The position numbers and the translations under genes were made by a program. Below, piece by piece: positions 927 through 64,000 of a DNA stretch of 64,000 nt. The notes beneath the pieces are model-generated. The model was not told where the DNA came from. It made no database searches and worked only from the letters and a program-made list of their open reading frames with translations. Numbering within the stretch: the first letter of the stretch is position 1; each line of letters begins with the position of its first letter. The DNA is from Trypanosoma brucei (taxonomy: Eukaryota): the NCBI GenBank assembly GCA_000002445.1, contig CH464491.1, positions 1,792,001 through 1,856,000 on the forward strand. The letters are read 5' to 3'.

Positions 927-939
927 GGGGGGGGGGGGG
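927..939. repeat. Homopolymer G(13). Further G/C homopolymers lie at 35781-35791 (G11) and 39136-39146 (C11)
   Basis: Direct read: gcggggggggggggggcg. Confidence 0.9.

Positions 940-4632: not shown

Positions 4633-4635
<3 letters not shown>

Positions 4636-4678
<43 letters not shown>
4636..4678. repeat. (CA)n microsatellite, ~21 units
   Basis: Direct read: cacacacac...cacg. Confidence 0.95.
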
Positions 4679-4681
<3 letters not shown>

Positions 4682-4846
4682 TGAACACTCCCCACGTATC
4701 TTGTCATTTACTGTTTTCCTTCACCCATCCACAACAGCTCATCTTTCCCTTCATATTCCACACATCCGCAACTATTCCTTCACTCACTAGAGAACTCTTT
4801 CTTGACACACACCCAACAATCGGTGGTCGCTGCGTCATATGCTCAT

Positions 4847-13377: not shown

Positions 13378-14654
13378 GGAACTAAAAACTTGTAACTCTC
13401 CTACGAACTATGTGTTTACAAGCAAACTTAGATATGCCCGCACACGTGACACACACACACACACGAGTACCCCAGCGGTGGATCACCACTTCAGGTATGA
13501 AACTCCAACCGTTCTACTCTGAACACAACAAAAATGCGATAACTCACCCACTGGGTGCTTAATAGGTTGTCACGTCACACTTCGCGTGGTGGAGTTTATA
13601 ATAGCAAGAGTTGAATGAAGGAGGGGTAGAATTCGATAGAGACGGGTGGCAATAAGGAAAGAACAGGGTGTTGAGCACTGGCAGACAACATTGAGAAGAT
13701 TTGGAACTATCCAATGAAACACTCTCCTCCACGAGTGTTTTGTCGTATCAGTGTCGAAGTGGTACACACAGCAATCCGCATGAGAGAATAGTCAAGGAAC
13801 CCTTCACTAAAAAGGTAGCAAACACTGAGATGCAAGTACGCTTTGCACGGGAAAACTTTAAAAAAGAAATGAAAAAGAGTGAACGGGCCTCCAGTTCCAC
13901 GTGCACACGTAGTGCACTGCTGTTGTTGTAGCAACACGACTTACCCCCGACGGAAATATTGAACAAACTCAAATCCAACACATTTAGAATTTACACCTCG
14001 CCCCACACGTTCGCTTCCGCATGTCCGGGCAATCACCAAGAGGCGGGGGATTGGAGAGGTAACTCCCAACGACGCACATCTACGAGACAACCCCGCACCA
14101 CACGTACACACAACTTTCTCCCTGCACGCGTACCAAAACGCACGAACGTTTGCTGCATACATTGCCACACCTGGTTCACGACTCTCGCCGCCGTTGGAAA
14201 ACCATCCAAGCATGCAAGAGCTATGAAAGGGAACCCCACTCAGGCATTCGGTACCCATGTGAAATACCTTCAAGGTTTAAAAAAAACTATTTAACACACT
14301 ACAACCGGTACCAATGCATTGTGTACCGCACTCCCAATACTTTTAAACTTGGACGTACCGACAGACTCACCAGTGGTACCACCACCCAATGGGCAAAACC
14401 TTTTGCAGGCACAACTCCAACACTCCAGTCCTTCTTCCTCCCATCCACAACCTCCCCCTCAGAACATTCAGCGTGGGAGCGCGCAAAAATAAAAGCGAAT
14501 ATGAGGAACGGATGACATGGAGCCACTATACCCTCGCCATCATCATATTCCTGACACAGAAGAGGTTGATGAAACCAGAGGCATTATTGTTAGTCCCTTT
14601 AAAAGAGGGTTTCGTCACCTACCATGCTCAACGCTCAAACTCCTCAAGGGAGCC

Positions 14655-16052
14655 TCACCTGCCAGCCGCACGTTTCCGTTTTATGCCTTTCTTCACTGCC
14701 GTCAGTCCCGGCAGTTCGAAGGGGAAAAAGAAGTCAGCTATCCCACAGCTTCCGTTATCCGGTACCAGTTGGCCAGACCTTGCTGTGCCACTCCTAGGCA
14801 ACACAACGTCCTGCTCGTTCACATCAGCGGAAAGGAAAATGTCGTCCCAACCCTCCAATGAGGTCCGAGTGGGTTCCCTTTTGACAGAATCCCGCTTTAA
14901 AGCATCGGGTGCCTCTCCATGGGATGGAGTACGTGATGGCAAAGCGCGTTCACCGCCCCCTTTCATGCCTCGACTCCGTCCACCCTCACCACTGCAAGCC
15001 GCTGAATTCCCATCAAATCTCGCCCTTTGGCTTGACGCAAGGCTGCCACCTCCGACTCTCCTCCTCTTTATAACTATCGGTGACTGTGATCGGGTGACCT
15101 TTCCAGATGTACCACTTGGGGAACAATGAATGTTGACCACAGGTTTATCGGTATTCGAAGCACGTTCCGCGGATCCTACAGCACGCGTATTGACATCACC
15201 GTTGTCTTTCAATGGGGCGACAGCGGGAGAGCCCATACTCGAGGCCTCACCCTCACCCTTCGCCTCCGTGTTGGCACTTTCCGCCAAACTGCAAGGGGAA
15301 GAAACGAACGGCGGTGTCGGCAGGTAATCCATTGCAGTTGGGAGACAACACAAAAACTGCTGGATGCGTTGAATGTGTTCCCCTTCACATAGGCAGCGTG
15401 CGAATACGTGGAAACGTAAAAGTAGTTGATCACTCGAAAGCGACTCTTCCGCACCCAGTTTAGAGCCAGGGCCAAACTCTATCGTAAGAAGCGGCTGCTT
15501 CCACGATGTTCCAGAGGAGGGATCGAAGAGTACTGAAGGTGATGTATCCCCAGTTGCCAAGCGCTTGCCGTTCACAAATGTTCCATTTTTACTTCCACAA
15601 TCACGGACGCTAAGAGCACACCACAACCCCGCGTCCGGTGAACCACGCAGCGGTTCTCGACCAGCGAGTTGCACGACACAGTGCCGACGCGAGAGAAATG
15701 AACCCAGCAGCTCCCCTTCAAACTGTATTACTCCACTGTTCTCCCTGGGATCCCTACCAAGTGGAAGGAGGCAAACGAGAGGAAGATTTGCCATCCCACA
15801 TCGATTCCCTCCACCTGTAGAGTTGAAGTTCTGAGAGGGAAGTGAGCAACCGTTCTCCGTGCTTCTAGATAGGAAGCGAGCCACAAGACGGCACCGTTTG
15901 TAACCACTCACTGAGGAACTTCGGACACGCATCGGTAACAAACCCGAAGGAGTCTCCTCCAGGCACTTTGTTGGCTGGGATACTGTTGCACTCAAACCGC
16001 CCAGGTCCGCAAGTGCCTTCAGGTTATGTGCAGCAACTATAGCAATCTCCAT
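14655..16052 (-). CDS. FHA (forkhead-associated) domain protein with Ser-rich low-complexity C-terminal half and basic C-terminal NLS-like tail
   Basis: 465 aa. HCVVQLAGREPLRGS...CALSVRDCGSKNGTFVNGKRL matches the FHA core signature (Gx(S/T)xNGTFVNG). The C-terminus KKGIKRKRAAGR is NLS-like. Confidence 0.7.
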   Translation of the reverse strand: MEIAIVAAHNLKALADLGGLSATVSQPTKCLEETPSGLLPMRVRSSSVSGYKRCRLVARFLSRSTENGCSLPSQNFNSTGGGNRCGMANLPLVCLLPLGRDPRENSGVIQFEGELLGSFLSRRHCVVQLAGREPLRGSPDAGLWCALSVRDCGSKNGTFVNGKRLATGDTSPSVLFDPSSGTSWKQPLLTIEFGPGSKLGAEESLSSDQLLLRFHVFARCLCEGEHIQRIQQFLCCLPTAMDYLPTPPFVSSPCSLAESANTEAKGEGEASSMGSPAVAPLKDNGDVNTRAVGSAERASNTDKPVVNIHCSPSGTSGKVTRSQSPIVIKRRRVGGGSLASSQRARFDGNSAACSGEGGRSRGMKGGGERALPSRTPSHGEAPDALKRDSVKREPTRTSLEGWDDIFLSADVNEQDVVLPRSGTARSGQLVPDNGSCGIADFFFPFELPGLTAVKKGIKRKRAAGR

Positions 16053-17472: not shown

Positions 17473-18063
17473 TCACTTCCGTTGAGGTGCAGCTTTCCCG
17501 CTACGACCCTGAGGTGCCCTCCTGTCACCGCCGCGCTGCTGCTGCTGCTGCTGCCGTTGTTGTTGTTGCTGCTGCGGTTTCTGCCTCTGTTGACCCTGGC
17601 GTTGACGGTTGCCCTCCTCAGTTCTGGCGGGCCTCCCTCCCTGTCGTTGTGCCTGCTGTGGACGGCCAGTGGGCTTCTGTGCAGCTCCACGCTGGGCAGC
17701 ACCCTTAGTTTGACCAGCCGCGTTACGGCCACCCTTCTGCTGAGTGCGGGCACCTGAGGCAACCTTCAGGTTCTTGGTTTTCTTGGCGCGAGGTTTCTTG
17801 CCAGTCTTGATGCGGACAATACCCTTAGCGATTGCTAGGTGATTGATGGCATGATCCGACTCACCCTGGCAGCGAAGGTAACCAGCGATGCAAAGCGTAG
17901 TCGTCGTACCATCAATCACACCGTTCGGATCGACATTTGCAATGGCAATCTGCACAGCAGAGTGATCGAACGAGGTAATGAGGCTGTTCGTCGCGTGGCA
18001 TTTGCGCGGAATGTACAGGTCCACGTTCACGCCTTCCTCATTGTAGGTCCCGATGGTCGCCAT
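17473..18063 (-). CDS. RPS21: 40S ribosomal protein S21e, copy 1 (with long basic Gln-rich C-terminal extension)
   Basis: The N-terminal ~85 aa align with eukaryotic S21e (VDLYIPRKC...AS/N...IA..NV...G; GESDHAINHLAIAKGIV vs GESDDSILRLAKADGIV). It is followed by a K/R/Q-rich tail. Confidence 0.85.
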   Translation of the reverse strand: MATIGTYNEEGVNVDLYIPRKCHATNSLITSFDHSAVQIAIANVDPNGVIDGTTTTLCIAGYLRCQGESDHAINHLAIAKGIVRIKTGKKPRAKKTKNLKVASGARTQQKGGRNAAGQTKGAAQRGAAQKPTGRPQQAQRQGGRPARTEEGNRQRQGQQRQKPQQQQQQRQQQQQQRGGDRRAPQGRSGKAAPQRK

Positions 18064-18334: not shown

Positions 18335-18919
18335 CTAAGAGCGAGGGCCGCGCCTACCGCTCTGCTGAGGTGCCCTCCTGTCACCGCCGCGCTGCTGCTG
18401 CTGCTGCTGCCGTTGTTGTTGTTGCTGCTGCGGTTTCTGCCTCTGTTGACCCTGGCGTTGACGGTTGCCCTCCTCAGTTCTGGCGGGCCTCCCTCCCTGT
18501 CGTTGTGCCTGCTGTGGACGGCCAGTGGGCTTCTGTGCAGCTCCACGCTGGGCAGCACCCTTAGTTTGACCAGCCGCGTTACGGCCACCCTTCTGCTGAG
18601 TGCGGGCACCTGAGGCAACCTTCAGGTTCTTGGTTTTCTTGGCGCGAGGTTTCTTGCCAGTCTTGATGCGGACAATACCCTTAGCGATTGCTAGGTGATT
18701 GATGGCATGATCCGACTCACCCTGGCAGCGAAGGTAACCAGCGATGCAAAGCGTAGTCGTCGTACCATCAATCACACCGTTCGGATCGACATTTGCAATG
18801 GCAATCTGCACAGCAGAGTGATCGAACGAGGTAATGAGGCTGTTCGTCGCGTGGCATTTGCGCGGAATGTACAGGTCCACGTTCACGCCTTCCTCATTGT
18901 AGGTCCCGATGGTCGCCAT
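18335..18919 (-). CDS. RPS21: 40S ribosomal protein S21e, copy 2 (tandem duplicate)
   Basis: The protein is identical to copy 1 except for the last few C-terminal residues. The nucleotide sequence is identical at an offset of 856 bp. Confidence 0.85.
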   Translation of the reverse strand: MATIGTYNEEGVNVDLYIPRKCHATNSLITSFDHSAVQIAIANVDPNGVIDGTTTTLCIAGYLRCQGESDHAINHLAIAKGIVRIKTGKKPRAKKTKNLKVASGARTQQKGGRNAAGQTKGAAQRGAAQKPTGRPQQAQRQGGRPARTEEGNRQRQGQQRQKPQQQQQQRQQQQQQRGGDRRAPQQSGRRGPRS

Positions 18920-38540: not shown

Positions 38541-38916
38541 GGGACTTTCCTTCTTATTTATTGACTTGTTTTGCGTGCGTTTCTTTCCTCCCTCCCTTTG
38601 TGCTTCAGGTCCCCTTATGCACCTTATCTCTTATTGTTGTTGCTACACTCCCTTTTTAACAAATTCCTGCTAACGTAAGTCCCAAGCAAGAAATATTGCA
38701 CTTCTGTCAACTGATATGTACTTCGGTTGTTAGCAACTCAATGGCGATATACCGGTGAAGTTCGAACGTACTCCTTTCAAAAAAAAAAGTCGAGATTTGC
38801 TTTTCCATGGCAAGAAGAAAAAAAAGGAGAAAATAGAGGCGCAGGAGTGACCGCATATTGGTATCAAGGGTGTGAGAGCCTTGGTATCTGTCAAGTTTAA
38901 GAATTTTTTTGCCTTT

Positions 38917-38945
38917 CAAAAAAAAAAAAAGACAAAGACAAAGTT
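38917..38945 (-). promoter_or_regulatory. Polypyrimidine tract on the coding (minus) strand upstream of the leucyl-aminopeptidase gene; candidate trans-splicing signal
   Basis: The plus strand reads caaaaaaaaaaaaagacaaagacaaag, which is ctttgtctttgtcttttttttttttg on the minus strand. AG dinucleotides follow on the minus strand before the ATG at 38540. The tract is ~400 nt upstream, so closer tracts may be used instead. Confidence 0.3.
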
Positions 38946-41900
38946 ACCCCATTTCTTCCGTCAACGCAACAGTGGAAGCGTAGAAACAGAGAAAGGGACA
39001 AAGAAACATTAAAAACAGCAGTAAGGGTGATAATGATAATAATAATAATAATAAAAGTACGACCTGTCTCCTGATTTAGCACTTGTTTGGCCCGTAAATT
39101 TTATCCATCCTGCGGGCGACTTGTCATTACCGCCTCCCCCCCCCCCGCCCCTCCTCAGGTAATAATCCGCTGATTCGCTTCTTCAACTTACCTTTCCTTT
39201 ACCCTTACTTTCCACATCTTCTTTTTCCCCCTTTTTAAAAAAATCTCTCTTACTTTTCCTTTTTCCCTTTTCTGTTCCTTTTGATTCAATTTTCCCCAAT
39301 AGTTCTCTTCTTCTCTCTCCTTACATTATTTTTCTTCCTTAGGTTTCATTTTTGACATATTTCCCCCATTCCCAGCACCCATACATCTACAACCCCCTCC
39401 AAATGTTGCAACAGCAAAACGGAATAGGGAAGAAGGTGGAGACAGGACAGGAGAAAAGAAAAAAAGAAAGAAAGAACCAACGTCTAATTCGGATATTCAA
39501 TTAGAGAAGAGGGAATAAACTTACGCATATATATATATATATATATATATATTTCCCCTCCACCCTTTCAACTGTAGGATATATATAAAAAAAAGTAATT
39601 GATTGCTAATGCTACTATCATTATTATTAGAAAAAATGACAATAATAGTGATAATAGCAATAACAATTATTATAATAACAGGAATAGCAGTTACATATAT
39701 ATAGTTTTAATATAGATATAAACAGCACGAAACGCCGTGAGTAGTAGTAGTAGTAGTATTCCACCGGCAACTTGTGTAAGTCCAAGTGCACGTGCAGAAA
39801 AGTGAGTGCATATTTTTTTTTTAATTAGAAGTGCTTGGTTGTTTGTTTGTTATTAATGATAATTGAATGGAAAGGGGGAGAAATGAATTTAAATTAGCGT
39901 AGATATTTTTATGTTCGTAAAATAAAGGAAGAAAAAAAACAGTAATTGTGGTCACAAAGACAGCAACTGTGGCAGAATAATATGGAAGGTCTAAATGAAC
40001 GAGAAAAAAAAAACACCGCTGGAGTATCAGAAGAATGTCCCGACACCTTCAGAAACAAAAAACAAAAGTGGGTGAAAAATGATTTCTCATCATTATCAAT
40101 ATATATATATAATACATACATGTTTATATGCATGTATGTATATCATACCCCTACGGGGTCAAAAAATGATTGTAAACATAGCTTAAAACGTTTCAACTGG
40201 ATAAAGAAAGTAAATAACATAAGCGGCGACAACAACTAAAAAGAGAAAAAAAAGGTTATGAAACATGCAAAGAAAAAATAGTAGTAACAATAACAATAAT
40301 AAGAGTAATAGTAATGGCAGTAGTAACAATAATAATAAAAATAAGATAGCGAAATTGGCAGAAGCAACACTTCCTTCCACCCACCACAGACGCCACGCAA
40401 AGAAACAAACAAACAAACTAACACGTAAACGCAAACATGCACGCATATACATATATACATATGTGCATACATTCATTCCTTTTTGTAGCCAATCCCTCAT
40501 TCAATATCTCTGAAAGCTGCAATAATCATTGTAGTAATTCTTATCACAACAGTTCCTGCTTATGTTCCTGTTGTTGTTTTAACAGAAGGGGACAAGAAAA
40601 GGAAAAGGAGAAGCGAATGGGAAACCCTTTTGCCCTTAACCCCTTTTCGTTTCTTCCCCTTTTTTGTTTTGTTTTGTCTTGTTGTTTTTCATTTTTTATT
40701 TTTTTTTCTTTTTGTGATTCTCCCTTAGCTTTTCACTTCTGGACACCCACAGCGCCACGCCTCGATGAGCCAAATCGCTCAGTTGGAGCGGGTAAACGAA
40801 ACAAAACAAGCAAACAAATACAGAGTAAGCAGTAATTTAAAAAAGGGGCTCCAAACAGGCACAAGTATGAACTGTACGCTCACACGCGCAGCAGTTCATC
40901 TCTCACACATGTTAACAAACAAGACATGCTATCACCGAAAATAAGCAGAAATAAGCAGAGTGAAAACAAAAAAAACGAAATAAACGAAATAAAAACAAAA
41001 CGCAACCGGACGCATGCATATACAAACAAAAATGTATACACGTACATACGCACGTGCATACATAAATATATATGTAATTTTTGTGATATATTTATAACAT
41101 ATATATATATAGATAGATAGATAAATTTATCAAGAGGTGTGAAAGGGACAAAAAGAGAGAATTGGAAGCATATGTCATCAACTACATATCATCTGTCACC
41201 GGCCGACACAACAAGCCGCAGTAAACACAACAGCGGGGAAAGGAAAATACACAAATGCGTATACAAGTAAAATAATCAAATTATATACCTGCATTTGTAC
41301 GTGTTTGTGTTTACATCTTTCATTTCCCTCTTCTTGTATTTTCTTTTCTTTTCTTCTCTTCTTTCATTACTTTCTTATTTCATTTTTCAGCCCATTCAAA
41401 ACCAATTTTGGAAATTTTAAGTGAATGGGCTTTCCTCTTTTTCTTTTTCGTTTTTTTTTGTTTTCAGCACAAAATTTCCTTCTTTCCCCCCTCCGTCCTG
41501 CTGCCGCTGTCGCCCCTTTCAGCTTCAAACTCATTGTTACAAAAAGCAACATCCCGCTTCTTTTCGCCATGATATGTGTTGTAGGCATTCAAATACGGTA
41601 CATTTTTCTTTCATACACTCATCTCCTCACCTGCAAACTTTTCCCTATTATTTTTGTTTTGTTTTTGTTTTATTCTTCTTCCTTCCTTCCTTTCTTCCTT
41701 TTCCCCCTTCATCTCTCTCTCTCTCCTTATCCACCCCATTTTTTTTCTGTTTCCATCATCACTACTTTTCATTATATTTTATTAAAATAAAATATAACGC
41801 AGATCTTACTCATTTCCTCTTTTGTTTCTTTCCCCTTCCTTTTGTATTCTTTTTTTTTTCATGAACTTCTCCACAGCTCTTTTGTCATCTCCCTTCTTTG

Positions 41901-42047
41901 TTCTTTTTGTTTTATTTTTGAGACATGACCGAATAATCTCCGCTGAATGAAAGGAGGAGAGGGGGAAAAAAAAAACTCACACGCTCCATCATGCATTCAA
42001 CGTTTTCCTTTTCTTTTTTTTCGTTTCTTCTTTTTTTTTTTAATTTA

Positions 42048-42049
<2 letters not shown>

Positions 42050-42078
<29 letters not shown>
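42050..42078. repeat. (AT)n microsatellite; a similar one sits at ~39527-39552
   Basis: Direct read: atatatatatatatatatatatatatatt. Confidence 0.9.
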
Positions 42079-42080
<2 letters not shown>

Positions 42081-45000
42081 CTTTTTTATTACCAATTAGA
42101 ACTATTATTAATATCATTATTTTGCTCCCTTTCTCTTCATCTTTTTTTCTTTTTTCTTCTTCCTTCTTTTTCTTAATGTCCTCCGAGAGGGGGGGGGGTA
42201 AAAAAAAAATGACAAAAAAAAACACACGCCAAATGAAAGAAGAAGAAGAAGGGAAAAAAAAAAAACAGACGCATGCGCATGTTTTTGTTAAGATTCAAAA
42301 ACAATTCTACACCTTCTATTGCGCCGCCACGACACCCTCACCACAACCACCACCATATTTTGAAAAATAAAAGACAAAAACCAAAAAAGAAAAAGGGAGA
42401 AAAAACAAAAGCTCTGAGAAAATCATTAAAGTCACACGTGGAAAGTTAACAAAAATAATAATATAAGTAAGAAAAAGAAGGAAGGAAAGGAGAAAAAGAA
42501 AGGCGGCATATGATACGAAACATCGATTACATTTATTTTATAAAATACCCACTTTGGTAGGAGGGGAGAAAAAATATATATATACACACACACCTCCGCT
42601 AAATTCTCTCTATTTCTTCTTTTCTTTTTTCTTTTCCGTGGGTGTGTTGTTGTTTTTGCTTTTTCTCTTTTTTTTGAAAAAAAATTACGTTTTTTTTTTT
42701 CCACGGGGATCAAATTCTTTCCTTCCGTCAAATCTCCCACACCCGCCCTTGTCAAATTTTTATTTATTTATTTATTTTTCTTTCATTTTGTAATTCCTTC
42801 CTTCCTTCTTTCGTTTCTTTTTCTTTTTCTCTTTTCTTTTGAAAACTTTACTTTTTATTTCCTTTCACCCCGAGTTGGTTGTAAAATTGTTGTTGGTGGT
42901 GGGTGGGAGCAGAAAAGCAGCAAAATGAGGGGGAAAAACAAAAAAAAAGGTGGTGAGCGCATGAGCAAAATAAGACGTGAAATAAAAAAACAAAAGTATT
43001 TATTTAGTATTTATTTTATTTTATCTTTTTTCACTCACCCTCCCAAATTGTATTTGCTACGCTCTCATCAGATACCCGTTACAACAACCACAAAAAGAAG
43101 AAAAAAGGAAAAAAAGAAAAGGAAAAAAAAAGAATGACGAAGCAAGCAGAACGACAACAACAACAATAACGGTGGTATAAATTTAGAAGGCAAAAGTCAA
43201 AAGAGTACAATAATAATATTATTAGTAACAGTAAAGAAAGCGAGTTCGTTTATTAGCTTTTTTAAAACAAAAAAAACAAAAAAAAAGCGTTTTGAACTTA
43301 TTTACATCACGTTCTGGAATAATCTCTTTTTCCTCCTTCCTCTTTCCTTTCTCACGATCCTCGAACCGAACAATAGCCGAACGACGCCACTTTTTTATAT
43401 TTTCTTTCTCTTTTCGCGGATAGAAGTTTGAACGCATAATAACCGTAAAAAAAAAAAAAAATCATGCATGTATTCATATTCTTACCGTCTATTTATATCT
43501 CTTTATACCTCTCCCTTTTTTATTCTCTCTTTCTTTCTCTTTCTCTCTCTTACACACACACACACACATATACATACACATACACATATAGACAGTTTCT
43601 AGATTTAATTGAGAGCACCAGTGACGGAAATGTAAACTTAATATTGTAGGGAAAAAGAAAAAAGGAAACAAAAAAGGACACAAAACACATTCTCCAGTGC
43701 TCTGCAAAAAAGAAAAAAGAAATTAACGGATACAAGAGGGTGTGCAAAGGGGATGGGGAAAAAAAAAGGAAATATATAATAAAACATATAAGAAAACATG
43801 TTCATATATAAAACATACACGTATATCTCTGTGTATATTTTATTTTCATGCATTATATTCCCCATTCATTCATTATTTGTTTTAGTTTCCTCCCCCTCCC
43901 CTTTTTTTATTTTATTTTATTCCGTGTGTGTGCATGCGTGTGTGTGTGCATGCGTGTGTGTGTGCATGCGTGTGCGTATATCTGAATTTGTGGTTTTATA
44001 CTCTCTTCCTTTCCATTATTTCATTTGTACGCAATCAAAAATGTTTCAACAATCGCACATGTTTCATCTTATACGTATTCCTTTTCTTTTCCAGTTTCTT
44101 TACTCATTTAGTTATCCATCCACTTATTCATTCATTATTGATGTGTACATTTTATATGGAGCTTCCTTTAGGGTAATGGAGGGAAACACGTCATTTCCCC
44201 TTTTTTTCTTTTTTTTTAAAAAAAACAAAACAAAACAAAAAGACATAAACATGAAAGCATTAAAACATGTAAAAAAGGGGGAAAAAAAAGCAAAATGAGT
44301 GCTTGGAAGGATGTAAGGAAAATGTGTAAGTTTGTGGGGTGGGGGGTGGGGTGGGGGGGAAAAAAAGACGCGCAAGTGGGTGCACAATAATAAATACTGG
44401 TAAGAAGAAAAAAGAAAAAGAAATAAAAGTCAACAAATATATATATATATATAATTACATATAATTATATATATAATGCAGAGAGTAAACTTAATGCACC
44501 TCACTTGCTTCCCCCTTTCCAGTTAATGCTGCACGCACTTCCTTCACAGCACCGCCACCCCACCTCCTCCTCCTCCCCCCCTCCCCCTTTTCTTTAAAAA
44601 AAGATAAAAACTTTAGATTTTTTTTTTTATTCGTCTCTTTTCTTTATTCCAAAACGGGATATTTTTGATTTGTCAGGCACATCATCCGCAAAATATTTTC
44701 ATCACATGTCTTCTCTTCTCTCTTTTGTTTTTATTTTTTATTTTTTATTTTCTTCTTTTCTTTTCATTTCGTTCATTCACATTAACTTCCCGCCACTGTT
44801 TCTGGAGACGCGTTATGAAAAAAAGAGTTTGAAACCACCGACACAAACAAACACAGCGCACACACACGCAGAAAAGAAAAGAAAACATCCACCAGGTAAA
44901 TAAATAAACAAAATGAATGAATGAAAGCAATAAATGAAAGCAATAAATAAAAAGGGAAGTGAGAGAAATGATGGAGAGAAAGCAAAAAAAAAAAAAGAAG

Positions 45001-48000
45001 AGAAAGATATAAATGTGTAAGAACGAATGCATTTGAGTTTCATAAGCATGCCAAAAGGAACTCAAGACGCCGGCTTTTACCTCTTTTTTTTAATTATTAT
45101 TATTATTACACATGCACACACACACACACACACCACACACGAGCACACGAATTATATATATATATATATATAATTCATGAACAAGAAAGAAAAAAAAGAA
45201 AGAATTGGAAGAGGAAGAGGAAGAAGAAGAAGAAGCATAAAAGGAATAAAAGATAAAACGAAAAAAAAAGAGATGTAAATAACTACTATAACCATAATGG
45301 AAAAGCAGTATAATGAAATTATATCACCAGTAAAATTATAATAATATTATCATTATTATTAATAACAATCAACAACAAAAATAATGTAAAGACCTTTTTA
45401 AAAAAAGGAAAAGGAAAGGAAAAGGGGGAAAAAACGAGAAACGGCGCGTGTCAAAGCATAATAGAAACAAACGAAACCGATTGCCAAAGGATAGATGTAT
45501 AAGCACACAATAACAAAAAGTACCAATCACACATATGAAAAAAGTAAAAAAAACAAAGGCTCTGTAAAAACCCGATCAAAACGCCCAAAAGAAAAAAAGA
45601 AAACAACTGAAATATAGCCCATTAATCAAGATGAAGAGTATAAGGTGAAGGGGGGACAAAAAAAAAACAACGATCAACCAACAAGAAAGGGAGAGTAAAA
45701 AAAAAAAAAAGGCAAAAAAAGGAATAAGCAAAAACGGACTTGCGCTTGTGGATGATTCCCTTTCTTTTATGAGTATAACGTGAAAAGTATATATGAAAGC
45801 ATCCTTTGGATAATACGCATCCGTTAAACAACAAAACAGAAAAAGAAAAAGAAAAAAAATGCACTCTTTCAACGTGGTACAACACAGAGACCAAAAAAAG
45901 AAAACGTAATCACTCAACCCCGCAAGCACCTCTGAAAGCAAAACAAAAATGAGTTTTAATTCGCTTCCACCAACGTTTTCCTCTTTTTTTCTGTCTCTTT
46001 TCTTTTCTCCTTTTTTTTTTCTTTATGTCTCCTCTTGTTGTTTTGATCAAACCCCTTCAGAGTAGCGCTCATTCAATCATTTTTTTCTTTCCTTTTTTTT
46101 TCGGTTCTTGTTTAACCTCCTCCTGCACAATTTTTTTCTTTTTTGCGGTGCCCCTTTAGTGTCACCCAAGCCATCGAGAAAACATAAAAAGAAAAGCATA
46201 AATAAACGTAAAACACAAAAAAAAAAACAAAAAAGAAAAGAAAAGACAATACAACAAGAAAAACAAGACAATCAATTGGATGAAAAAAGAAAAAGAAAAA
46301 GGGAGGGGGGAAAACACAGAAGCAACACGACACCAAGAAAAAAAAAAGACCAAAAAAAAACTAAGCAGCAGGAATGCGGCTCAGTAACGAAAATATATAA
46401 ATGAAAAAGGAAACCAAGAAAAAAAAAAAGAAGGAAGAGGAGGAGGGATGTGGGGAAGGAGTATTAATATACAGCGGTGCAAAATATTTTAGCCTCCTCC
46501 GTAATCGCCACCACCGCCACCGCCATCATAATTTTCACATCCTCCTCCGAGTCACAAGTGTGCGCGGGATGAACCTCGCAAAAAGAAGAAAAAACATAAA
46601 CGACAAAAAAAAAAAAAATAGAGAATTGTAAAATGCCGCTTTCATCGCCTCCATTTTTGGTGCCATCATTTCGAACCTGCACCTTACCAACGTCTCTTCC
46701 CTGGAAAATAAACTTTTTTTATTTTGAGTTTTTAATCATGTCACGTTTCCTCTCATTTCTTTCCGTCACATCATACATTCGAGATAATATCTCAAAATGT
46801 CTCTCCTTTTTTTTTTACTTCTACAGGTCAGCAGCGGCAAGTTGAAAGGAAACGGGAAAAGCATCACATAAAAAAAAAACACAACGACCTCTACCTCCCG
46901 CTAAATATCAATAGCTTCCGTTCCCTTTTTCATTCTTTATTTTCTCTTTTACATTTTTGTTTCTTCGTGTTCCTTCTTCTACCGTCCCCCTCCCTCACTA
47001 ACTCATTTATTCATTCATTATGCCTCATTTCAGCTGCACTCGTATGGAATGCACGTTAAAAAAAAAAGGATCAGAGAAAGGAAATATTGAACGCTGTCAC
47101 AGAGTCTTCATGTCCATCCACAGTGATACGAACGAAGGTGTTCAAAAAACAAAAAACAAAAACAAAAACAAGGGCAGTTGGGGCAACGCTGCGGTCGCAA
47201 ACGTAAAGAGTAAACAAACACGTCAGACAGTGACAGTAAGCACAACAAACAATCAAACAAAGGCTCGACAGCTAAGAAGACAACGCGAGAGGAGGAAAAT
47301 CAGCAAACAAAGGGGGGAAACATATAGAAAAGTGGGTAAAGTACGAAATTGAGTGGGGCTACAAACAACAAAAGACGTATCGGATGGCGTAGGAATAATA
47401 GTGATACAAAAAAGAAAAAGAAGAAAAGAGGGAGTAACATCGGAATGCAGAAATAAAGAAGGAGTAACACGTACTCCCCCCAACTTTCTCACTGGAGTCA
47501 CTCTTCCACGTGGTTATTTTCATTTCCCTCTAAATCCACCTCTTCTCCTCCTCCACTCCGCAAGGGAAGACAAGTTCCATATATTTTACAGATATTTTCC
47601 TACGAAACGCAAAAAAAAAACCTTCCGCTCCTTTCCCTGACCCCCCCCCAAAAGGTGCAACGCGTTATACTTCGCTTCCCTTCCATTCATATACGTACAC
47701 ATATAAATATTCGATTAAATAAACATATACAAATGTGGATATATGAGCATATATATGTATATGAATGTTCGTATTCAATTGTATGCGTGTATTTTGCCGC
47801 GGTCTGCGCCAAATGGGAAGGAGGAAAAAAATAAAAGCAAAAAACAAAAACAAACAGCACAAAATGAAATAAGATAATACGAACAGAAAAAAGAACGCGG
47901 GAAGACACCGTTCCGCTGGTCAAGGCAGGGTTAGGCCCCCTTATTTACCTCAACATCTTTCGACGGACATTATTTACGTTCATTTCCAACTATTACCTTC

Positions 48001-48376
48001 ACGTCAAAAGGAAACTGGTGTCCACTACATTTGTTGCATCCCCATCCTTTTCACCTTTTTTTCTGCCATTGATTCGTTTAACCTCGTTCCCCATCCGGGG
48101 AGGTCGCACAACTCGAGGCATACGTCAGATGTTCTGTTTATTTCCCCCTCACTTCTCTTCTTTCCCCTTCTCTGCACAAAAACAAGGGAACGGGAGAAGC
48201 ACTTCACCCATTTATTATCCCTCTTATTGGTTTAAAGTCGAAACAAAACAACGTCCCGCTGGCTCCTCCACTCCACGACATGATGCCCCACACGGGGAAT
48301 CCGATGAAAACAAAACGGAACACAACACCAAAGCAAAAGGAGCAAAATAGCGTTCACTCCGGTCAGGGGTTCGGTC

Positions 48377-56758: not shown

Positions 56759-57160
56759 CTAGGTAGCAAAAATGTAGCACAATAAAAGGAGAATTAAAAG
56801 AAATAACCCCACAATATGATATACTGAAAGAACACCTCCGCCACCTTTTACCTTTGTTAACGGCACATCGTCTCCCAACTTCCTTACTCGAACCGGTGGG
56901 GGAGCGGAAGATGGGTCGAGTTCACCGATTATGAACTCTTTTGATAGGGCAAGTGCTGAAGAGGAGTGCCCGATACTTTCAAAAGAGTTTGTGATATCGT
57001 ATCCTCCGAGGTCATTAATTGTATCAAGGCCTCCGGGGTGCTCGTTCAAAAACTTCGTAACGTCCAACACTCGTCTGTAAAGAACGACCCAGCAGTCCTT
57101 ATCATGATTGTGTTTCCTTATCTCCTCCCAAGTATATTTTGGGAGTTGTGACGTTGTCAT
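56759..57160 (-). CDS. Cytochrome b5 (tail-anchored)
   Basis: 133 aa. The heme-binding core is WVVLYRRVLDVTKFLNEHPGGLD...FESIGHS. The C-terminal hydrophobic anchor is VYHIVGLFLLILLLLCYIF. Confidence 0.85.
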   Translation of the reverse strand: MTTSQLPKYTWEEIRKHNHDKDCWVVLYRRVLDVTKFLNEHPGGLDTINDLGGYDITNSFESIGHSSSALALSKEFIIGELDPSSAPPPVRVRKLGDDVPLTKVKGGGGVLSVYHIVGLFLLILLLLCYIFAT

Positions 57161-58727
57161 TACGCAAACACAGCTTGCGTTGCAGACTACTTTCCCCTAA
57201 ACTGTAACAGCGAGAACTGAGCTATTCACAAGTCAGTGCAAAGGGAGAAAATAGAAGTTGATACACGGTTTTTCAAGTGCTTTTTTTTGTGGTAAAACAA
57301 AGGAAGATGGCAGCATCCTAAGAGTGAGAAACAAAGCAAAATTGACCCACCATAGAAGTATCAAAAGAAAGACACGTGTGTGTTTGCACAACCCACTTCA
57401 AAAGAATATAATAATTTTTCATTTCCTTCCGTGTACGAAAAGGACTTACAATTAGAAAGGGTAAAATCGTATGGAAAAAAACAAAAAAACACAACTTTCT
57501 GCGTCTTCCAGCCCCCGGACACGCCTGATCACAAACTATCCCCACACACTCCTCTTCGTTAACCTTAGTACCGTATAGCGGCAATTGAAATTTGTTATTT
57601 GCCCTCATGTGCGCGTGCATATCTATGTAACAAAAAAGAATATGAAAGTTAGCAACGTCACACAGACAAGTAACTCCTTGCTCCCGCTTCAAAGCATTGC
57701 GCCTCTTTTTGGGGAAAAAAGGGAAAAGGTGTACGAACTTTCGACTGGAAAACGGCGTCAGCACGTAAAACGTGACTATACACAAGAATGGCGAAAAAAA
57801 AAAAGTCGATATGCGGGGACGCACTCATGTACACCAACAAGAAAACGTTTAAAACAAAAAAACTGAAGGAGAAAGAACAACTGTGAGGAAATTCAATAAG
57901 AGGCCCACTACTACCCAATGGTGGGGTTGGTAATTGTCATCGGCAACCCTACAGCCGTGGTTCAGACTGAAAAACGAAGGCAACAAACGTGAAACGAATC
58001 TTACAACGAACATGTTTGGACAGAACAGCTTAGACAATTAAGAGAGGGCAGAAACTCTCGATAACATCGCTCTTACACTTTAATTCTTCCTCGCATTACG
58101 AATGATATTTTTTATAGCACGTACCAAAATATGAGTATAGCTGTGTCGTAAACAGGCAATCCCAACAGATCCACATGCAACAAACCACAGACGATAAGTT
58201 TATGTTCTGCGCCACAAACAAGGACCAAATACAACCGAGGACCTACCATCTTGCGGATCAAACCAAACAGTTAGCGTCCCTAAATCATGGTGAATCCACA
58301 CAATAAACAGATCACAAATCTCATTCAGCTTCATACAAGCAGACACAATGCTGGTAAGGTTGAAACCACGCAACGCACATTACCATCTGCTATAACACTT
58401 TCGTTAAGGAAAAAAAACCATCATGTCGTGTCAGCACATCGTTCACTTCAACCCGAACTGTTTGATACAGTACTTGTACTGTTTCGAAACGCCGGTAGAC
58501 CAATGAGGCATCCCACAGCTTGCAAGTGGCCCTACAAATAAAAAGAAGGGGCTGCCTAGTTAGTTCAACGAGGTTTGAAGATGTACTCCCCTTGTTTCTT
58601 CTGTTCGCGAACAAGCAGAGTTTTGGGAACATATAGCGACTCACCAATATGATCGCCGGTGGAAGAGCCGTGCCAGGCCCAGGCCAAAATAAAATTGTGC
58701 AACATATTCCAGGGAAGGTAGGCTTTC

Positions 58728-58754
58728 CACACACACACACACACACACACACAT
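58728..58754. repeat. (CA)n microsatellite (= (GT)n on the coding/minus strand), ~13 units
   Basis: Direct read: ccacacacacacacacacacacacacat. Confidence 0.95.
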
Positions 58755-59351
58755 AAATAAATAAAGTTCGTATTTCCTATCGTCAAAACCACAATCTAAA
58801 CGATGATCCTCGAACTGACGCATTCAACTCACTCACCGTCATGGCTATTTTATTAAAGAGTAAAGTCCTAATCAGTAGTCCTCTTTTTTTCGTAATGGCA
58901 GTTTGCCGATAGAATAATTAAGTCTTGACGTTTAAACTGAAAAGACGTCTAACAAAGTTTCAAAAGGACAATATATATTTATATTCGCTTTTGGTTGATT
59001 TCGATAATAATCACTTTAATACCAACACGGACCATTGTGCCCGGTAATGGCTGTATCCTTTACATCACCACGATTTTTATCATATGTAAGAATTTTGCAA
59101 CAAAAAGTACAGGGAGTATTACCCGTACAAAGTTATGGGGTCATACACAAAATTTTCCACTGACGAACTTGTCCCAGTTAAGTTTCAGTAAGCCGCATGA
59201 GTGCCTAAACCCTCCCTGTTGCCACTATCACACAGACTTAATCATACGAAGCAGAAGTGAGGTAAGTTTTCTGTGATGTTGTGTTTACCTTTTCCCCATT
59301 CCCTCTTATCTCCTTCCTGTGATATGCCAGTCAGAGAACAAAAGAGGGGCT

Positions 59352-62300
59352 TCAAAGACAACCAGGCGGTTTTGTTACCACAGATTTCTTCCACAATGAC
59401 AAAACACGTTTAAAGTCTTTGAGAGTAGCGACGCACGCCCGCTCACGACCAAATACAAAAAACTTTCGATAATGGCCACGGTTCTTACCCTGTATTGCAT
59501 CGGAAGCTGGCAATAAAAGTACCTTCCTTAACTTTCTGACGGTTACGTAGGCCACCATCAACACTGGGGAGAAAGAGGAACCACATACACAGACACACAC
59601 ACACACATACACACAAGTCACATGTATGTTTTTTCTCCTCATAGAGAATTGCGGCCAGTTTGTTAGGAAGATCGCATCAGCAAACAACATAAGCGTATCG
59701 CCTTCCATGAACGCTGAAGAGAACACGCGCGGTCCACAGATAATGAGTACAGCGCTACCGCCCGCGTACAAAATATACCCCACACCTCCTGTAGTCGCAC
59801 ACGTAGACGCGAACAAGTCCCGAACATCATCACCTGTGCTTTGCCGGTTCCCAGCGCGAGACCGCAACACCCACCAAGGCGCGGCAACCGCCAACGCAAC
59901 GAACCAGAAGCCGAATTGCCGCTGAAAGCGACGCTCCCGAACGCGCCCGGCGCCGGCCGTCAGCAGTGGCATGACAGTTTCCGGTCCACGGAAGCCGGCC
60001 CCAACCCCATCCACGGGTTCCGGATTTCCGCCTCCCACCGGAGGAAACACGGCAGGCTTAACCATCACCTGCTCTTTTTTTAATCACGTGGTGACGTGCG
60101 CGCCAAAGAACATGGGGTCGACCAGGGAAAACAGTAAACTGTGGAAGGGTGGGGAAGCTTGTAGTCATCCGCGCCCCTGGAAAGCATAACTGCCCACTGG
60201 CCGCTAAACCCAGAGCGAGACCACCGTGTTCGGGGGCCAACAAGAGGGGCGCTACTCGGGAAAGGGGGAATGCACCGCCGCCCCCACGTCGATGCTGGTA
60301 CAGAAAGAGGTGAAGAACCGGGTGACGCCATGCAGCGCCGCAATGCAGGAAGGGACCGTCCCGCATGCGCGCACCCGCTTGACAACGACCGCGTCGGCAT
60401 TGGCCAGAGCGTTGGGGAAACGCTGCGGTAACAACCCCCGCCAACCAGGCGCGAGGTCAAAGAATAAACAAATAGCGGAAGCCCGAAACCACCGAAAGAC
60501 AAAGCCTCAGCCGGTGCTACCCCGCGGTGACAGACTGCATGCTGTCTAAGTGAGCTCCGGGCCGAGGGAAAACTGAGCGAACTGCGACATGGAGCGGGAG
60601 CACCTACCATCAAATGGCCCCGAGAAATAAACGGTCTACACATTCGAAAGGGTTAGGGCTCCCGAGCGTGCATTTCAAAACCAAGCAGCCATTAACACCA
60701 CAAGGCCGATCACCCCAAAGGAGGTTGGCAAATGTTTCGTCCCACCACGGTGAGATTGTCAGGAAACAGCCCCATTTACAGGAAGGGCGCCCCCACACCC
60801 AGTGCGGCCACGGGTGGCGCGGTCTTGTGGGACCTAACCTTCGATGGGGAGTCGCCAGCCCAAGACATTTCAAATTAAATAGAACACTCCACCGCAGATT
60901 CCGGGGTGTGCAGCCGCATTCCGCTGCAATATTTAAACTGCGGCGGTGGTTGCTCGCCGTCGCGCTTCAGTGAGGTGCTAAGAACGAAAACGAGAAAGGA
61001 TACCTTTTCCCACCAATTCTATCCGGCCCCCATGATATCGGCCGCTCGTCCGATATTTCTTCACCTTAGACACATTTTTCGAGGGGCTGTGTTCTCAGGC
61101 CTCGATTGGCGGCGCCCTTCGTGGAAACACCAGACCAACGGAGCGACTACCGCGGTACCGCTACGGGCGCGGATGGCAATTTGTTTGTCTCCTTGCGCCC
61201 CATCCCCCACCCCATCCTTTAAGAGGCTGAAAGAAATCGGGTTCAACGCCGGAGTTCACCGACAAGTTGCGGCCCCTTCGTTGTAGGAGCGCTGGTGTTG
61301 TAATGCTCTGAGATTTCCAAGCATTTGCTTAGGTTTTTGGGTTAGTCCCGCCCCGCTGGACGTGCACTCCGAGAGGGGGTGCCTTCCCGAAAGCGTGTTG
61401 CGGAAAGCAACCCTTTTCGCACGCCACGGGCCTTGCCCCTCGCGCTTGAGCACTGCGTCTTAACTGGAAAGGTTCCTTCAACCTTGCATGCGGCCCCACT
61501 CACCGTGGAGACATCGATTGACATTTTTGGGGGTGGGTTGGTGACGTTACGGGGGAGAGAGTCTGACCACGAAAAAAAAACTCACGGAGCCCGGTGCGAA
61601 TTACGAGCGGGTCTGGAGGCGTTGTTTCCGGGCTGTCACCCATCCACGAGTGGACGCGGCAACATAAGCGCACGACTGGGATCTACAGAGGTGTGATTTG
61701 GGAATGTGGGCAGTACCGCCGACGCCCCTTGCTCGATGGAACCCAGCTGGACGAGGAGCAACCGCAACCCGAGAATGCTGCAACAAAAACCTTGGTCCAA
61801 ACATTTCCTATGCGAACGATTCCCTACGACCTTTGCTGCAGTTGCCGTAGCGACGGGAACCAACAGGGAGAAGCTGGGTCCTGGCAGCCGAGTGCCCCCA
61901 CCGAAACATTGAAAACGGAAGGTCCCACCGAGGCGGACGTCCCAACTTTAAGCACACAATTCGTTGTGTCTTAAGGGACCTGTCGGTGGCGCCGCACAGC
62001 GGGTGCCGACAAAGGGCTTTGAAAGACGACCCGTGATTCACACGGGGGTACGGCAGCACAGGCGGAACGGCTTTTGATGCGCGTGAAAGCGAGTACGAAG
62101 CAATGGTACAGAAGGTTTTCATCACGCGGATGGCACTTCGAGCGACCGGCCGCTGGCAAACCACCGGAAACGCTTTGCGGAAACTGGGGTTGATAAACGG
62201 AACAAAGTGCAATGAGGATAACCATCTAAGGAATTCAACCTGCACTGTAGTCGAAAGGGTGGTGTGGAAGAGGGAAGCAGCAATGGCGCCCCGTGCAGGT

Positions 62301-64000
62301 TGCCTGCTGTTGTTGGTTAAAGTTGCTGTTTCACGCTTTTGGAGGAGCGAGCCAGCTGCGAGAGCAGCGCTAGGCAGGCATCAGCGCACTGACGGAATCG
62401 CGGGAAAGGACCTTCACACAAAAACCAGTGGAATAGAGGGGTTGTAGTACGTTGACTCGGTTAACGGCACGGGCTCGGGAGGAGGAAGTTCCTTGCACAA
62501 CCGTCATGGAGAATGAGTAAATCATTTTTACCCAGGGGCGACGGAAGCGTCGCCCAGCTGGCGTGGAACACTTAGGTTACACCACATTGTGGGTGAAGGG
62601 TTCGTTGGGAATAGGCACACATGTGCGAAACTGACGATGTCAAAATTCACACAGTTTGGATGAAGTTGTTTGATAGCATTCTTCTGCGACAGCGGACAAA
62701 ACCCGGTCAAATGCCCTATGGAATGCGGCGGAGTGCGGCGTCGATTGCGCCCGTTGGGATTAAAGACTTCCACTTGGCCCCTCCACGTGGATATCACTGA
62801 GCACCAACCGCGCCGGACGCAGAGACCCGGTAAACCTAAAAACGTTTCCTCTTACTGCGCCGCAAGGCGCCTTCGTTCTCTCCACAAAATTCCCCAGGGT
62901 CTGCAGTGGTTCCGGAGAACGCGGGGAAGCGCCCTATCCTGTTTATCCGAAAAACAACGAAACCCTGTACCTTTCTTTCAGCGTTGTTCCCACGTCTTCC
63001 CCGTGGTTAACGGTCCAGCCGGGGAACATACGTAAAAAGTTGTGCCCAACTTGCTTAACTTGGCTACAAATGTGAAGCACTTGCACCCCTTACGGAAAGA
63101 GTGTGCCACTTGATCCGCCTTCACTACTACGCGTCTTTCAACCGGGAAGCAAAAGTAGAGAAGAAAGCAAGCATTTAAGCGTCAGTGACAAGCAACACTC
63201 ATCTTACAACCCTCGCCCTGTGCGGGGGTGGCATTTATAACAATGATCCGCGTTCCGTGCGACGCCTTCCAAGAGACAACTTCAATGTTTCAGTCTTCCT
63301 GACCTCACGGCGTAGTGTGAAGCAGGAGGCAAGAGGGTAAAACAAACCCCCCGCTTCACGTTCCACCGTCCCTATCGAAACATTTATGAAACAATACGAA
63401 GAAAGGGATTGCTGTTACTTAGACGAACTTTGGTCCATAGGTTTTGCTCCCACAAACTTATGGATCCAAAAAAAAAATTGCTTCGTTTAAGGGAGATGGA
63501 CGCGAAAAACAGACGGAGCCGACAGTCACAACAACACAAACATGACCAAAGCACCGTGATGAGAGCGTTCGCCGCAGCGGGCTCACACGTCCCTCGCTAC
63601 ACCACTGAGGCTATTATGTTGTCAAATATGACGTGCAGGGAACAACCGCAGGCGAACTGGGGCCTCCATTGCCCACGTAGTTCCAAAGGTGCTTCAAGTT
63701 GCCCACAAAGAGGGGAGGATGTGACGGAAAACGCGGGGTTCACACCTATTTTATGCTCAGAACACAAATACACTTTGAGCATCGCCAGTTTGATCACTGG
63801 GTTGTGACGCTGGTTTCATCTCGACTTTCCTTTTCCTCCGTTCAGTTGGCGTTTGGAAAGAGGTGACAGGGGTTGCGCCGCCCACGGAAGCGGCCGCAAC
63901 TCTACGTACCTCTTCTTCGGCCCCTGGCGGCTGTCGGGACCCGACAGCCGCTTTCTTCGCCGCTCGTGGCGTCTTCCCCTTTTCCTTGCTCTTGCTGCGC
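59352..64000. other. G+C-rich block lacking any clean ORF (overlapping 60-190-codon ORFs on both strands); candidate degenerate retroelement (DIRE-like) and/or transcription-unit boundary
   Basis: There is an abrupt composition change relative to the AT/low-complexity intergenic DNA at 57.2-59.3 kb. No frame stays open beyond ~190 codons. The longest ORF (59352-60068) reads through a (GT)n microsatellite. Confidence 0.35.

Follow-up and report, generated by a model that had tools for sequence, protein, structure and literature searches.

Introduction

DIREs, the degenerate retroposons of the ingi/L1Tc clade, are defined by similarity to ingi/L1Tc proteins and by Pr77, a hallmark of 77–79 nt at the 5′ end. 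The subject of this study, a G+C-rich block on chromosome 11 of Trypanosoma brucei TREU927, resembles DIREs in being kilobase-scale, G+C-rich, ORF-poor and intergenic, and an intact member of the clade occupies the equivalent slot in T. vivax. Unlike DIREs, the block showed neither the protein similarity nor the hallmark.

A second class of comparable loci comprises the start regions of RNA polymerase II. These have, to our knowledge, no strict motif, and in T. brucei they were reportedly described as H2A.Z/H2B.V domains by Siegel in 2009. In the core genome of T. brucei, 6.6 kb is a long distance without a gene, and unit boundaries are over-represented in gaps of this kind. Fifty-seven start regions of T. 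brucei are non-divergent (PMC5579346). Compared by sequence, the locus shares with non-divergent start regions a long interval without genes between neighbours on one strand, with (GT)n tracts nearby on the coding strand. It differs in that G-runs and GT-rich 10-mers, which are typical of the 5′ part of such regions, are lacking in the block.

Relic DNA left by gene loss at synteny breaks offers a third comparison, in which the slot of a lost gene, here a transporter, is filled by unrelated, neutrally evolving sequence. Decay of this kind would predict a G+C content of about 40%, whereas the block keeps a coding-like 0.55–0.60 with no frame signal. The ORFs annotated in the locus, Tb11.02.4490 in TREU927 and four others in T. 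b. gambiense, show no real difference from the orphan annotations of TriTryp genomes, which are labelled 'hypothetical protein, unlikely' or species-specific.

Results

Position in the gene array

The window, that is, the whole stretch of 64,000 nt that was analysed, ended inside a gene (Table 1). Eighty of the 80 minus-strand codons at 63760–63999 were identical to residues 856–935 of the TEX-like protein of T. b. gambiense. The full ORF of this protein (positions 595–3402 of the gambiense locus) encodes 935 aa with Tex_N, Tex_YqgF and HHH domains, and its orthologues were present across kinetoplastids. In T. congolense, a TEX-like fragment was located on a 2.2 kb contig, and the MCCB protein was on record in no contig. 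The gene identifier in T. brucei was taken from a preprint (bioRxiv 10.1101/2024.03.18.585547). The possibility that the block is what decay has left of a longer TEX-like C-terminus was rejected, the 935 aa of the T. brucei protein being in the length class of the Trypanosoma orthologues (944–986 aa).

The sequence-only reading had described the region as free of genes up to position 64000 and as the upstream end of a transcription unit. Both statements had to be given up: a conserved gene overlaps the window end, and it shares its strand with cytochrome b5. Past 64 kb, where that reading had proposed to look for a divergent plus-strand array, the minus-strand TEX-like gene continues. The gene-free gap between the TEX-like and cytochrome b5 genes measured 6.6 kb, with both flanking genes on one strand. 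Because the upstream neighbour has the same orientation as cytochrome b5, the block lies in the interior of a directional array and not at its boundary.

Table 1. Features of the gap and its flanking genes (positions in the 64,000 nt window).
Feature	Position	Strand	Remarks
TEX-like gene Tb927.11.6660, 3′ end (last 80 codons; stop at 63757–63759)	63757–64000	−	Conserved; continues past the window
G+C-rich non-coding block	59500–63756		Mean G+C 0.55; 4.3 kb
First polypyrimidine tract + AG downstream of the TEX-like stop	63144–63167	−	Candidate trans-splice acceptor; pattern scan
Further polyY-AG candidates	61000–60980, 60317–60302, 59349–59333	−	Pattern scan
Orphan ORF Tb11.02.4490	59352–60068	−	237 aa from ATG at 60065; annotated as 'T. 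brucei spp.-specific protein'
Imperfect (CA)n, plus strand, equal to (GT)n on the coding strand	59582–59616		Length-polymorphic; junction of AT spacer and G+C-rich block
AT-rich low-complexity spacer	57161–59499		G+C 0.41; ~2.2 kb; upstream of cytochrome b5
Cytochrome b5 gene Tb927.11.6640	56759–57160	−	Downstream neighbour of the gap

Composition

The compositional outline that had been drawn from the sequence was reproduced. Beyond cytochrome b5 comes the AT-rich, low-complexity spacer, after which the G+C content rises from 0.37–0.45 (57.0–59.5 kb) to 0.55–0.61 (59.5–62 kb), remaining at 0.52 or above up to 63 kb. The spacer contains a (CA)13 tract at 58728–58753, and a pattern scan of its coding strand returned polyY-AG sites at 57729–57711, 57489–57473 and 57257–57240. 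It probably holds UTR sequence and processing signals. An A10 run was observed at 63466–63475, with nothing that ties it to the end of an element. In third-order Markov models, the coding-trained model outperformed the intergenic model on the block by 0.033 bit/nt.

Coding potential

Many overlapping ORFs, 60–238 codons long, were seen on both strands of the block, and the longest (59352–60068, 238 aa, minus strand) runs through the imperfect (GT)n tract; both observations had been made from the sequence beforehand, with ORF lengths given as 60–190 codons. The longest stop-to-stop interval was 194 codons, compared with 198 ± 39 expected from 500 Markov simulations. The simulations also indicated a slight excess of intervals of at least 100 codons (18 vs 11.9 ± 2.9 expected, P = 0.03). 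ORF lengths are those expected by chance for DNA of such composition.

The codon-usage log-likelihood was around zero or below in the block and gave no coding signal. Median period-3 power was 0.66, against 2.3–4.0 in the neighbouring genes and 3.7 in the T. vivax element described below, and a local period-3 signal was absent throughout the block. No Pfam domain was detected in its six X-masked frames. A search with the X-joined ORFs of the block in an index of 5.8 billion proteins returned no match, but it also missed the known gambiense ORFs of the locus, which makes this negative outcome uninformative.

The annotated orphan ORF Tb11.02.4490 (probably the same gene as Tb927.11.6650) did not keep its reading frame within the T. 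brucei group. A premature stop at 59736 interrupts the frame in gambiense and in the T. brucei-group genome L003, and in gambiense, T. equiperdum and L003 the frame is shifted by length changes of the (GT)n tract. Of the nine substitutions upstream of this tract, eight alter an amino acid or the start codon. Protein collections contained one orthologue per genome, and an exhaustive HMMER search of 1.84 billion representative proteins returned only the ORF's own orthologue and a low-complexity match. In gambiense, four ORFs of the 'unlikely' type are annotated in the same gap. From its sequence, we judge Tb11.02.4490 to be spurious, an apparent annotation artefact. The block is non-coding, as had been proposed: it has no codon-usage signal, weak period-3 power and no Pfam domain, and the frame of its annotated ORF is broken in the sister subspecies.

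Divergence within the T. brucei group

Of the genomes fetched, those that carried the block all belong to the T. brucei group: TREU927, gambiense, T. equiperdum and L003. A second copy was found neither in the 64 kb window nor in the fetched loci, and a search for a repeat within the window was likewise empty. Divergence from gambiense amounted to 0.99% in the block. The coding sequence on its flanks diverged less, by 0.41% (Fisher P = 4e-4), while the value for other intergenic DNA, 0.78%, was not significantly different from that of the block. The variants were spread evenly, with no conserved island. Between the subspecies, the block had 3 gap columns and the AT spacer 17; the spacer showed the highest divergence and the most indel columns among the regions compared. 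The block is fast-evolving and T. brucei-specific, and it diverges at the intergenic rate.

The syntenic slot in other trypanosomes

In T. cruzi and T. melophagium, the gene order was TEX, a nucleoside transporter (PF01733), cytochrome b5 and MCCB. In T. vivax, it was a retrotransposon, an AT spacer, cytochrome b5 and MCCB. The T. vivax slot contains a near-intact ingi/L1Tc-type element of 5.4 kb, antisense to the array and directly upstream of the AT spacer, with matches to RVT_1 (6e-26), RNase_H and C2H2 fingers. The transporter gene was absent from the slot in T. brucei and, within the 10 kb fetched, in T. vivax. No similarity was detected between the block and the syntenic DNA of T. cruzi, T. 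melophagium or T. vivax.

Discussion

Probable relic DNA inside a polycistronic unit

Located between same-strand genes, in a slot that holds a transporter or a retrotransposon elsewhere, the block looks like evolutionary debris and not like the start of a unit. We estimate the probability that it is lineage-specific non-coding relic DNA within a polycistronic unit at roughly 55%. In this reading, the ancestral slot between the TEX-like and cytochrome b5 genes held a nucleoside-transporter gene and has since turned over, and the 4.3 kb of G+C-rich DNA now present in T. brucei may have originated from a decayed insertion or gene. RNA polymerase II would presumably continue from the TEX-like gene through the block into cytochrome b5, giving rise to a long 3′ UTR and/or to unstable non-coding RNAs that are processed at the few polyY-AG sites. 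The first candidate acceptor downstream of the TEX-like stop would then set the polyadenylation site of that gene. The block itself is probably transcribed passively.

A G+C content of 55–60% without a coding trace is odd for neutral decay, because the intergenic DNA of the T. brucei genome has about 40% G+C. The decay of the block could be recent, or its composition could be maintained, and the latter would hint at a function. The better fit of the coding-trained Markov model, the small number of indels between the subspecies and the length of the gap also count against the relic reading.

Possible retroposon debris

We consider it unlikely that the block stems from an old DIRE-like insertion, a retroposon of the ingi/L1Tc clade that has degenerated past recognition. 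Some circumstantial support for the idea comes from the ingi-type element in the corresponding slot of T. vivax. The block and this element are similar in length (4.3 vs 5.4 kb), in G+C content (0.55 vs 0.60) and in the A>T skew of the plus strand (+0.146 vs +0.123), but the skew is common to the ordinary intergenic DNA of the array. The Pr77 hallmark was searched with blastn-short and nhmmer, using the L1Tc probe sequence from PMC1874656. It gave chance matches only in the block, although the probe worked on the T. vivax element (94.7% identity over 38 nt, E = 1.3e-12).

Searches for retroposon proteins gave the same picture. The six frames of the block had no Pfam match to RVT_1, endonuclease or RNase_H at E ≤ 10, and neither tblastn nor phmmer --max found anything in it with the endonuclease, reverse transcriptase (RT) and RNase H proteins of the T. 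vivax ingi element. Stringent frameshift-tolerant Smith–Waterman alignment scored at the mean of the shuffled sequences (P = 0.36–0.79). For RT on the minus strand, collinear hits (P = 0.02) and a permissive alignment (P = 0.04) were obtained, both P-values being uncorrected and from among 16 and 20 tests. The weak tblastn chain to the T. vivax RT, with motif-like matches such as PAGFHRAR vs QAGFRPAR, is on the strand opposite to that of the skew argument. We treated it as chance, because its spacing is stretched 2–4-fold and its P-value is lost under multiple testing. The absence of a local period-3 signal and of a second copy within the window also argues against a retroposon. The sequence-only reading had named DIRE/ingi debris as one option; the block yielded no Pr77, RT, endonuclease or RNase H signal for it, and what speaks for it is the circumstantial evidence from T. 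vivax.

A possible head-to-tail start region

That the gap is a non-divergent start region of RNA polymerase II, separating a TEX-like unit from a cytochrome b5 unit, appears improbable. The unusual length of the gap and the existence of such regions in T. brucei are in favour of this interpretation, as are the coding-strand (GT)n tracts in the spacer (58728–58753) and at the junction, which match start-region-enriched 10-mers. However, of the enriched 10-mers of Wedel 2017 (PMC5579346, Dataset EV1), only three were found on the coding strand between 60 and 63.7 kb, two of them overlapping, and their density was at most 2 per kb across 60–64 kb. Between 60 and 63.7 kb, neither G-runs of at least 7 nor G-quadruplex motifs were detected on either strand. 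The GT/T-rich matches are confined to the AT spacer and to the (GT)n tract at its junction with the block, with a density like that of other intergenic regions of the window, and a far better-looking candidate boundary is located only 11 kb downstream, at 38.5–48.4 kb. The locus was not listed in the supplements searched on start regions, chromatin and lncRNAs. The position of a polymerase II start assigned to the block beforehand is at odds with the same-strand upstream gene and with the lack of G-runs and of the GT-rich 10-mers (PMC5579346).

Possible functional RNA

We are doubtful that the block encodes a functional lncRNA or serves as an extended UTR with a regulatory role, for instance in the expression of cytochrome b5 or MCCB, and regard this as quite improbable. 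More than 1,400 lncRNAs are reportedly encoded in intergenic regions of T. brucei, which we counted in favour of this explanation. It is also consistent with the retention of a G+C-rich composition without coding, with the small number of indels between the subspecies and with candidate splice acceptors on the coding strand (63135, 60978, 60295 and 59317). Against it stand a substitution rate equal to that of other intergenic DNA without a conserved island, and the absence of anything equivalent from T. vivax, T. cruzi and T. melophagium; the literature and supplements searched do not mention the locus. Rfam and ARAGORN gave no match in the block, the only sub-threshold hit being SCARNA7 (16.8 bits vs a gathering score of 65), and a cluster of rRNA, snoRNA or tRNA genes was rejected on the same searches. 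A scan for bacterial promoters and terminators returned chance-level counts, its models being irrelevant to a trypanosome.

It is very improbable that an unrecognisable retroposon fossil was co-opted as a head-to-tail start or termination region of polymerase II, or as an lncRNA locus. If this were true, the G+C content of the block would be maintained because the DNA has a function, not because it encodes a protein, and a boundary of a polycistronic unit would have been born from the insertion of a mobile element, in the succession transporter, retroposon, regulatory DNA.

That the block derives by decay from the ancestral nucleoside-transporter gene, possibly together with other genes, is hardly credible: it occupies the exact transporter slot of T. 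cruzi and T. melophagium and has a coding-like oligonucleotide composition, but three transporter proteins found no match in it by tblastn, PF01733 was absent from its six frames, frameshift-tolerant alignment scored at or below the shuffle mean, a period-3 signal was missing, and the transporter gene is 1.35 kb long compared with 4.3 kb for the block.

Implications

For annotation, Tb11.02.4490 and the 'unlikely' gambiense ORFs in the gap are to be treated as non-coding. A switch in composition at the edge of a window is no ground for inferring a unit boundary, because here the decisive gene lay just across that edge.

As lineage-specific relic DNA, the block would be mostly of no wider consequence, an ordinary non-coding gap. 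The slot in which it lies has a history of repeated turnover: in T. cruzi and the T. theileri group it is occupied by a nucleoside transporter, in T. vivax by an ingi-type element, and in T. brucei by DNA that is no longer recognisable. It offers a natural case in which a gene was lost, and a retroposon inserted, within a polycistronic unit.

Position of the gap in the gene array

The sequence-only reading had placed an ORF-less, G+C-rich block at the upstream end of a transcription unit. On the minus strand, window positions 63760–63999 encode the final 80 residues of a 935-amino acid TEX-like protein (80/80 identical), a gene on the strand that carries cytochrome b5 and every other gene of the window. 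Since this gene lies just upstream on the same strand, the 6.6 kb gap is inside the directional array, and the positional inference was wrong. The gene was invisible to that reading because it runs off the window, and its 3' end occupies the last 244 nt of the stretch described as ORF-less to 64000. Gene-like ORFs of at least 200 amino acids were all on the minus strand, with the exception of one plus-strand ORF (14389–15129) that overlaps a longer minus-strand ORF. An identical cytochrome b5 protein is encoded in T. brucei gambiense (chromosome 11, FN554974.1, about 1.86 Mb), T. equiperdum and a third T. brucei-group assembly, and the 6.8 kb upstream of the gene was 98.7–99.65% identical to these three genomes. 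Elsewhere in the window, a tandem pair of near-identical minus-strand genes (17473–18063 and 18335–18919; 196 and 194 amino acids) looks, from its sequence, ribosomal protein S21e-like with long Q/R-rich C-terminal tails.

Features of the locus in T. brucei and of the matching loci (L001, T. b. gambiense; L006, T. melophagium; L008, T. vivax, SOPI01000059.1)
Feature	Identifier	Coordinates	Strand	Basis or remark
MCCB	Tb927.11.6630; probably Tb11.02.4480 (from numbering)			TREU927 protein EAN79625.1; cluster look-up, literature
Cytochrome b5	Tb927.11.6640 = Tb11.02.4485	56759–57160	minus	cluster look-up, literature
Gap		57161–63756
AT spacer		57161–59499
Orphan ORF	Tb11.02.4490; probably Tb927.11.6650 (from numbering)	59352–60068	minus	cluster look-up
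Block		59500–63756
TEX-like stop codon		63757–63759	minus	frame translation
TEX-like protein	Tb927.11.6660		minus	cluster look-up, literature
Gambiense-annotated gap ORFs		L001 4125–4442, 4713–5057, 8412–8828, 9146–9709		window about 62.7–63.0, 62.1–62.4, 58.3–58.7, 57.5–58.0 kb
Nucleoside-transporter copies		L006 7425–8675, 13354–14712		either side of TEX-like gene
T. vivax retrotransposon		L008 about 495–5907	antisense to array
RT ORF of element		L008 2705–4993		RVT_1, 6.4e-26
RNase H and C2H2 fingers of element		L008 1599–2990
Pr77 hallmark of element		L008 5897–5838		5' end
A-rich 3' end of element		L008 near 500

Composition and coding potential of the block

For 59.5–63.75 kb the earlier description holds. 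The G+C fraction rose from 0.37–0.45 (57–59.4 kb) to 0.55–0.61 (59.5–62 kb) and stayed at or above 0.52 up to 63 kb, overlapping ORFs of 60–238 codons were found on both strands, and the longest ORF spanned an imperfect (GT)n repeat (59582–59616). The composition observation is real but ordinary, and coding is not indicated by the ORFs. At 194 codons, the longest interval between stops was close to the 198 ± 39 of 500 first-order Markov simulations, from which the sole departure was a mild excess of intervals of at least 100 codons (P = 0.03). The codon-usage log-likelihood stayed near zero or negative throughout the block, rising weakly above zero only over the annotated ORF. Period-3 spectral power was lower in the block (median 0.66, maximum 2.2) than in genes nearby (medians of 2.3–4.0) or the T. 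vivax element (3.7).

The orphan ORF Tb11.02.4490 (237 amino acids) is not a gene. A stop codon at 59736 truncates it in gambiense and the third T. brucei-group assembly, the (GT)n repeat varies in length and so breaks the frame in each of the three other genomes, and upstream of the repeat eight of nine substitutions altered an amino acid or the start codon. When 1.84 billion representative proteins were searched exhaustively with HMMER, only the gambiense counterpart and a low-complexity CVCV match were retrieved. Four more gap ORFs carry T. b. gambiense annotations ('hypothetical protein, unlikely' or TbgDal_XI7520). At 90% clustering, three were singletons, the 138-amino acid ORF clustered with one Logan-assembly sequence, and none had a Pfam match; they are probably annotation noise.

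Synteny and the search for a decayed element

T. cruzi (two haplotypes) and T. melophagium share the gene order TEX-like, nucleoside transporter (PF01733, about 450 amino acids), cytochrome b5, MCCB. The two transporter copies flanking the TEX-like gene in T. melophagium are near-identical, which points to local duplication there of a gene absent from the T. brucei locus. The 10 kb upstream of MCCB in T. vivax contained cytochrome b5 (69% identical), a 2.7 kb AT-rich spacer (36–39% G+C) and, directly upstream of it, a G+C-rich stretch (56–63%) without a detectable transporter, which was a near full-length retrotransposon of the ingi/L1Tc clade. Another T. vivax assembly is interrupted 604 nt before MCCB on its upstream side and so carries no information on the element. 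T. vivax and T. brucei share the layout of block, spacer and cytochrome b5, but with unrelated sequences; when the T. brucei gap was compared with the T. cruzi, T. melophagium and T. vivax gaps by blastn and in six frames, only chance matches were obtained.

The T. vivax element in the equivalent slot lends circumstantial support to an origin of the T. brucei block as a decayed retroposon, an idea that is unproven and that we rate as unlikely. An L1Tc Pr77 probe (PMC1874656) found nothing in the block; as a positive control across genera, it matched the T. vivax element (E = 1.3e-12). Pfam searches of six X-masked frames gave nothing relevant at E ≤ 10, and the T. vivax endonuclease, RT and RNase H/zinc-finger ORFs had no match (tblastn, phmmer --max). 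In a custom-written frameshift-tolerant Smith–Waterman alignment (self-control score 4016; 100 dinucleotide shuffles as the null), every query scored at the shuffle mean when the settings were stringent. Permissive settings brought only RT, on the minus strand, to P = 0.04, in line with collinear chains of weak RT matches (P = 0.02). We read this RT chain as chance, because its motif-like matches were stretched 2–4-fold in spacing and both P values are uncorrected over 16–20 tests. The earlier proposal of non-coding DNA or retroelement debris thus stands in its first part, with no codon signal and ORFs at chance, and is unproven in its second.

Search for start-region signals and sequence constraint

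An internal RNA polymerase II start region is a distinctly improbable account of the block. Only three of the 10-mers enriched on the coding strand of T. brucei start regions (Wedel et al., PMC5579346, Dataset EV1) matched the coding strand at 60–63.7 kb, where no G-run of at least 7 and no G-quadruplex motif was found. The 10-mer matches of the gap lay within the AT spacer or on the two (GT)n tracts and were about as dense as in other intergenic regions of the window. Start regions have no strict motif; the scan makes a non-divergent internal start less likely. The locus did not appear in the searched supplements of papers on start regions, chromatin and lncRNAs.

The same minus-strand array contains a very AT-rich stretch of about 9.8 kb without genes (38541–48376, 31–37% G+C). 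Low-complexity repeats are dense on either strand of it, homopolymer runs of G or C occur in both orientations (C11 at 39136, G10 at 42189, C9 at 47641), the coding strand carries 50 polyY tracts, and 10-mers enriched in start regions are numerous on both strands. Judged by these features, it resembles a unit boundary (termination together with a non-divergent start) more closely than the G+C-rich block does.

Between TREU927 and gambiense the block had diverged by 0.99%, more than flanking coding sequence (0.41%; Fisher P = 4e-4) and without a significant difference from other intergenic DNA (0.78%); the AT spacer had diverged by 1.46%. Variants were evenly spread, and the longest invariant run (370 nt) was approximately that expected at a uniform rate. 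We consider a functional lncRNA or UTR very unlikely. A transporter pseudogene is scarcely credible, as tblastn with three transporter proteins gave no match in the block.

Origin and expected transcription of the block

We favour, with a probability of roughly 0.55, the reading of the block as relic non-coding DNA. Its G+C (0.55–0.60) and oligonucleotide composition are coding-like, and a Markov model trained on coding sequence outperformed an intergenic model by 0.033 bit/nt, without strand preference. Such a composition without frame, homology, period-3 signal or measurable constraint is odd and is explained by none of the tested readings. Long-term neutral decay is expected to pull G+C towards approximately 40%, the level of other intergenic DNA. 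A not-so-old insertion, derived from non-coding or scrambled sequence, may account for the composition, as may some maintenance of it.

As relic DNA, the block would occupy the slot of a lost transporter gene. RNA polymerase II arriving from the TEX-like gene would read through the gap, and the first polyY-AG after the TEX-like stop (63167–63144, coding strand; AG at about 63135) would set the polyadenylation site of that gene. Later polyY-AG sites (about 60978, 60295 and 59317) could yield non-coding RNAs of low stability, among them the 'mRNA' of the spurious ORF, while those at 57705, 57445 and 57222 would serve cytochrome b5.
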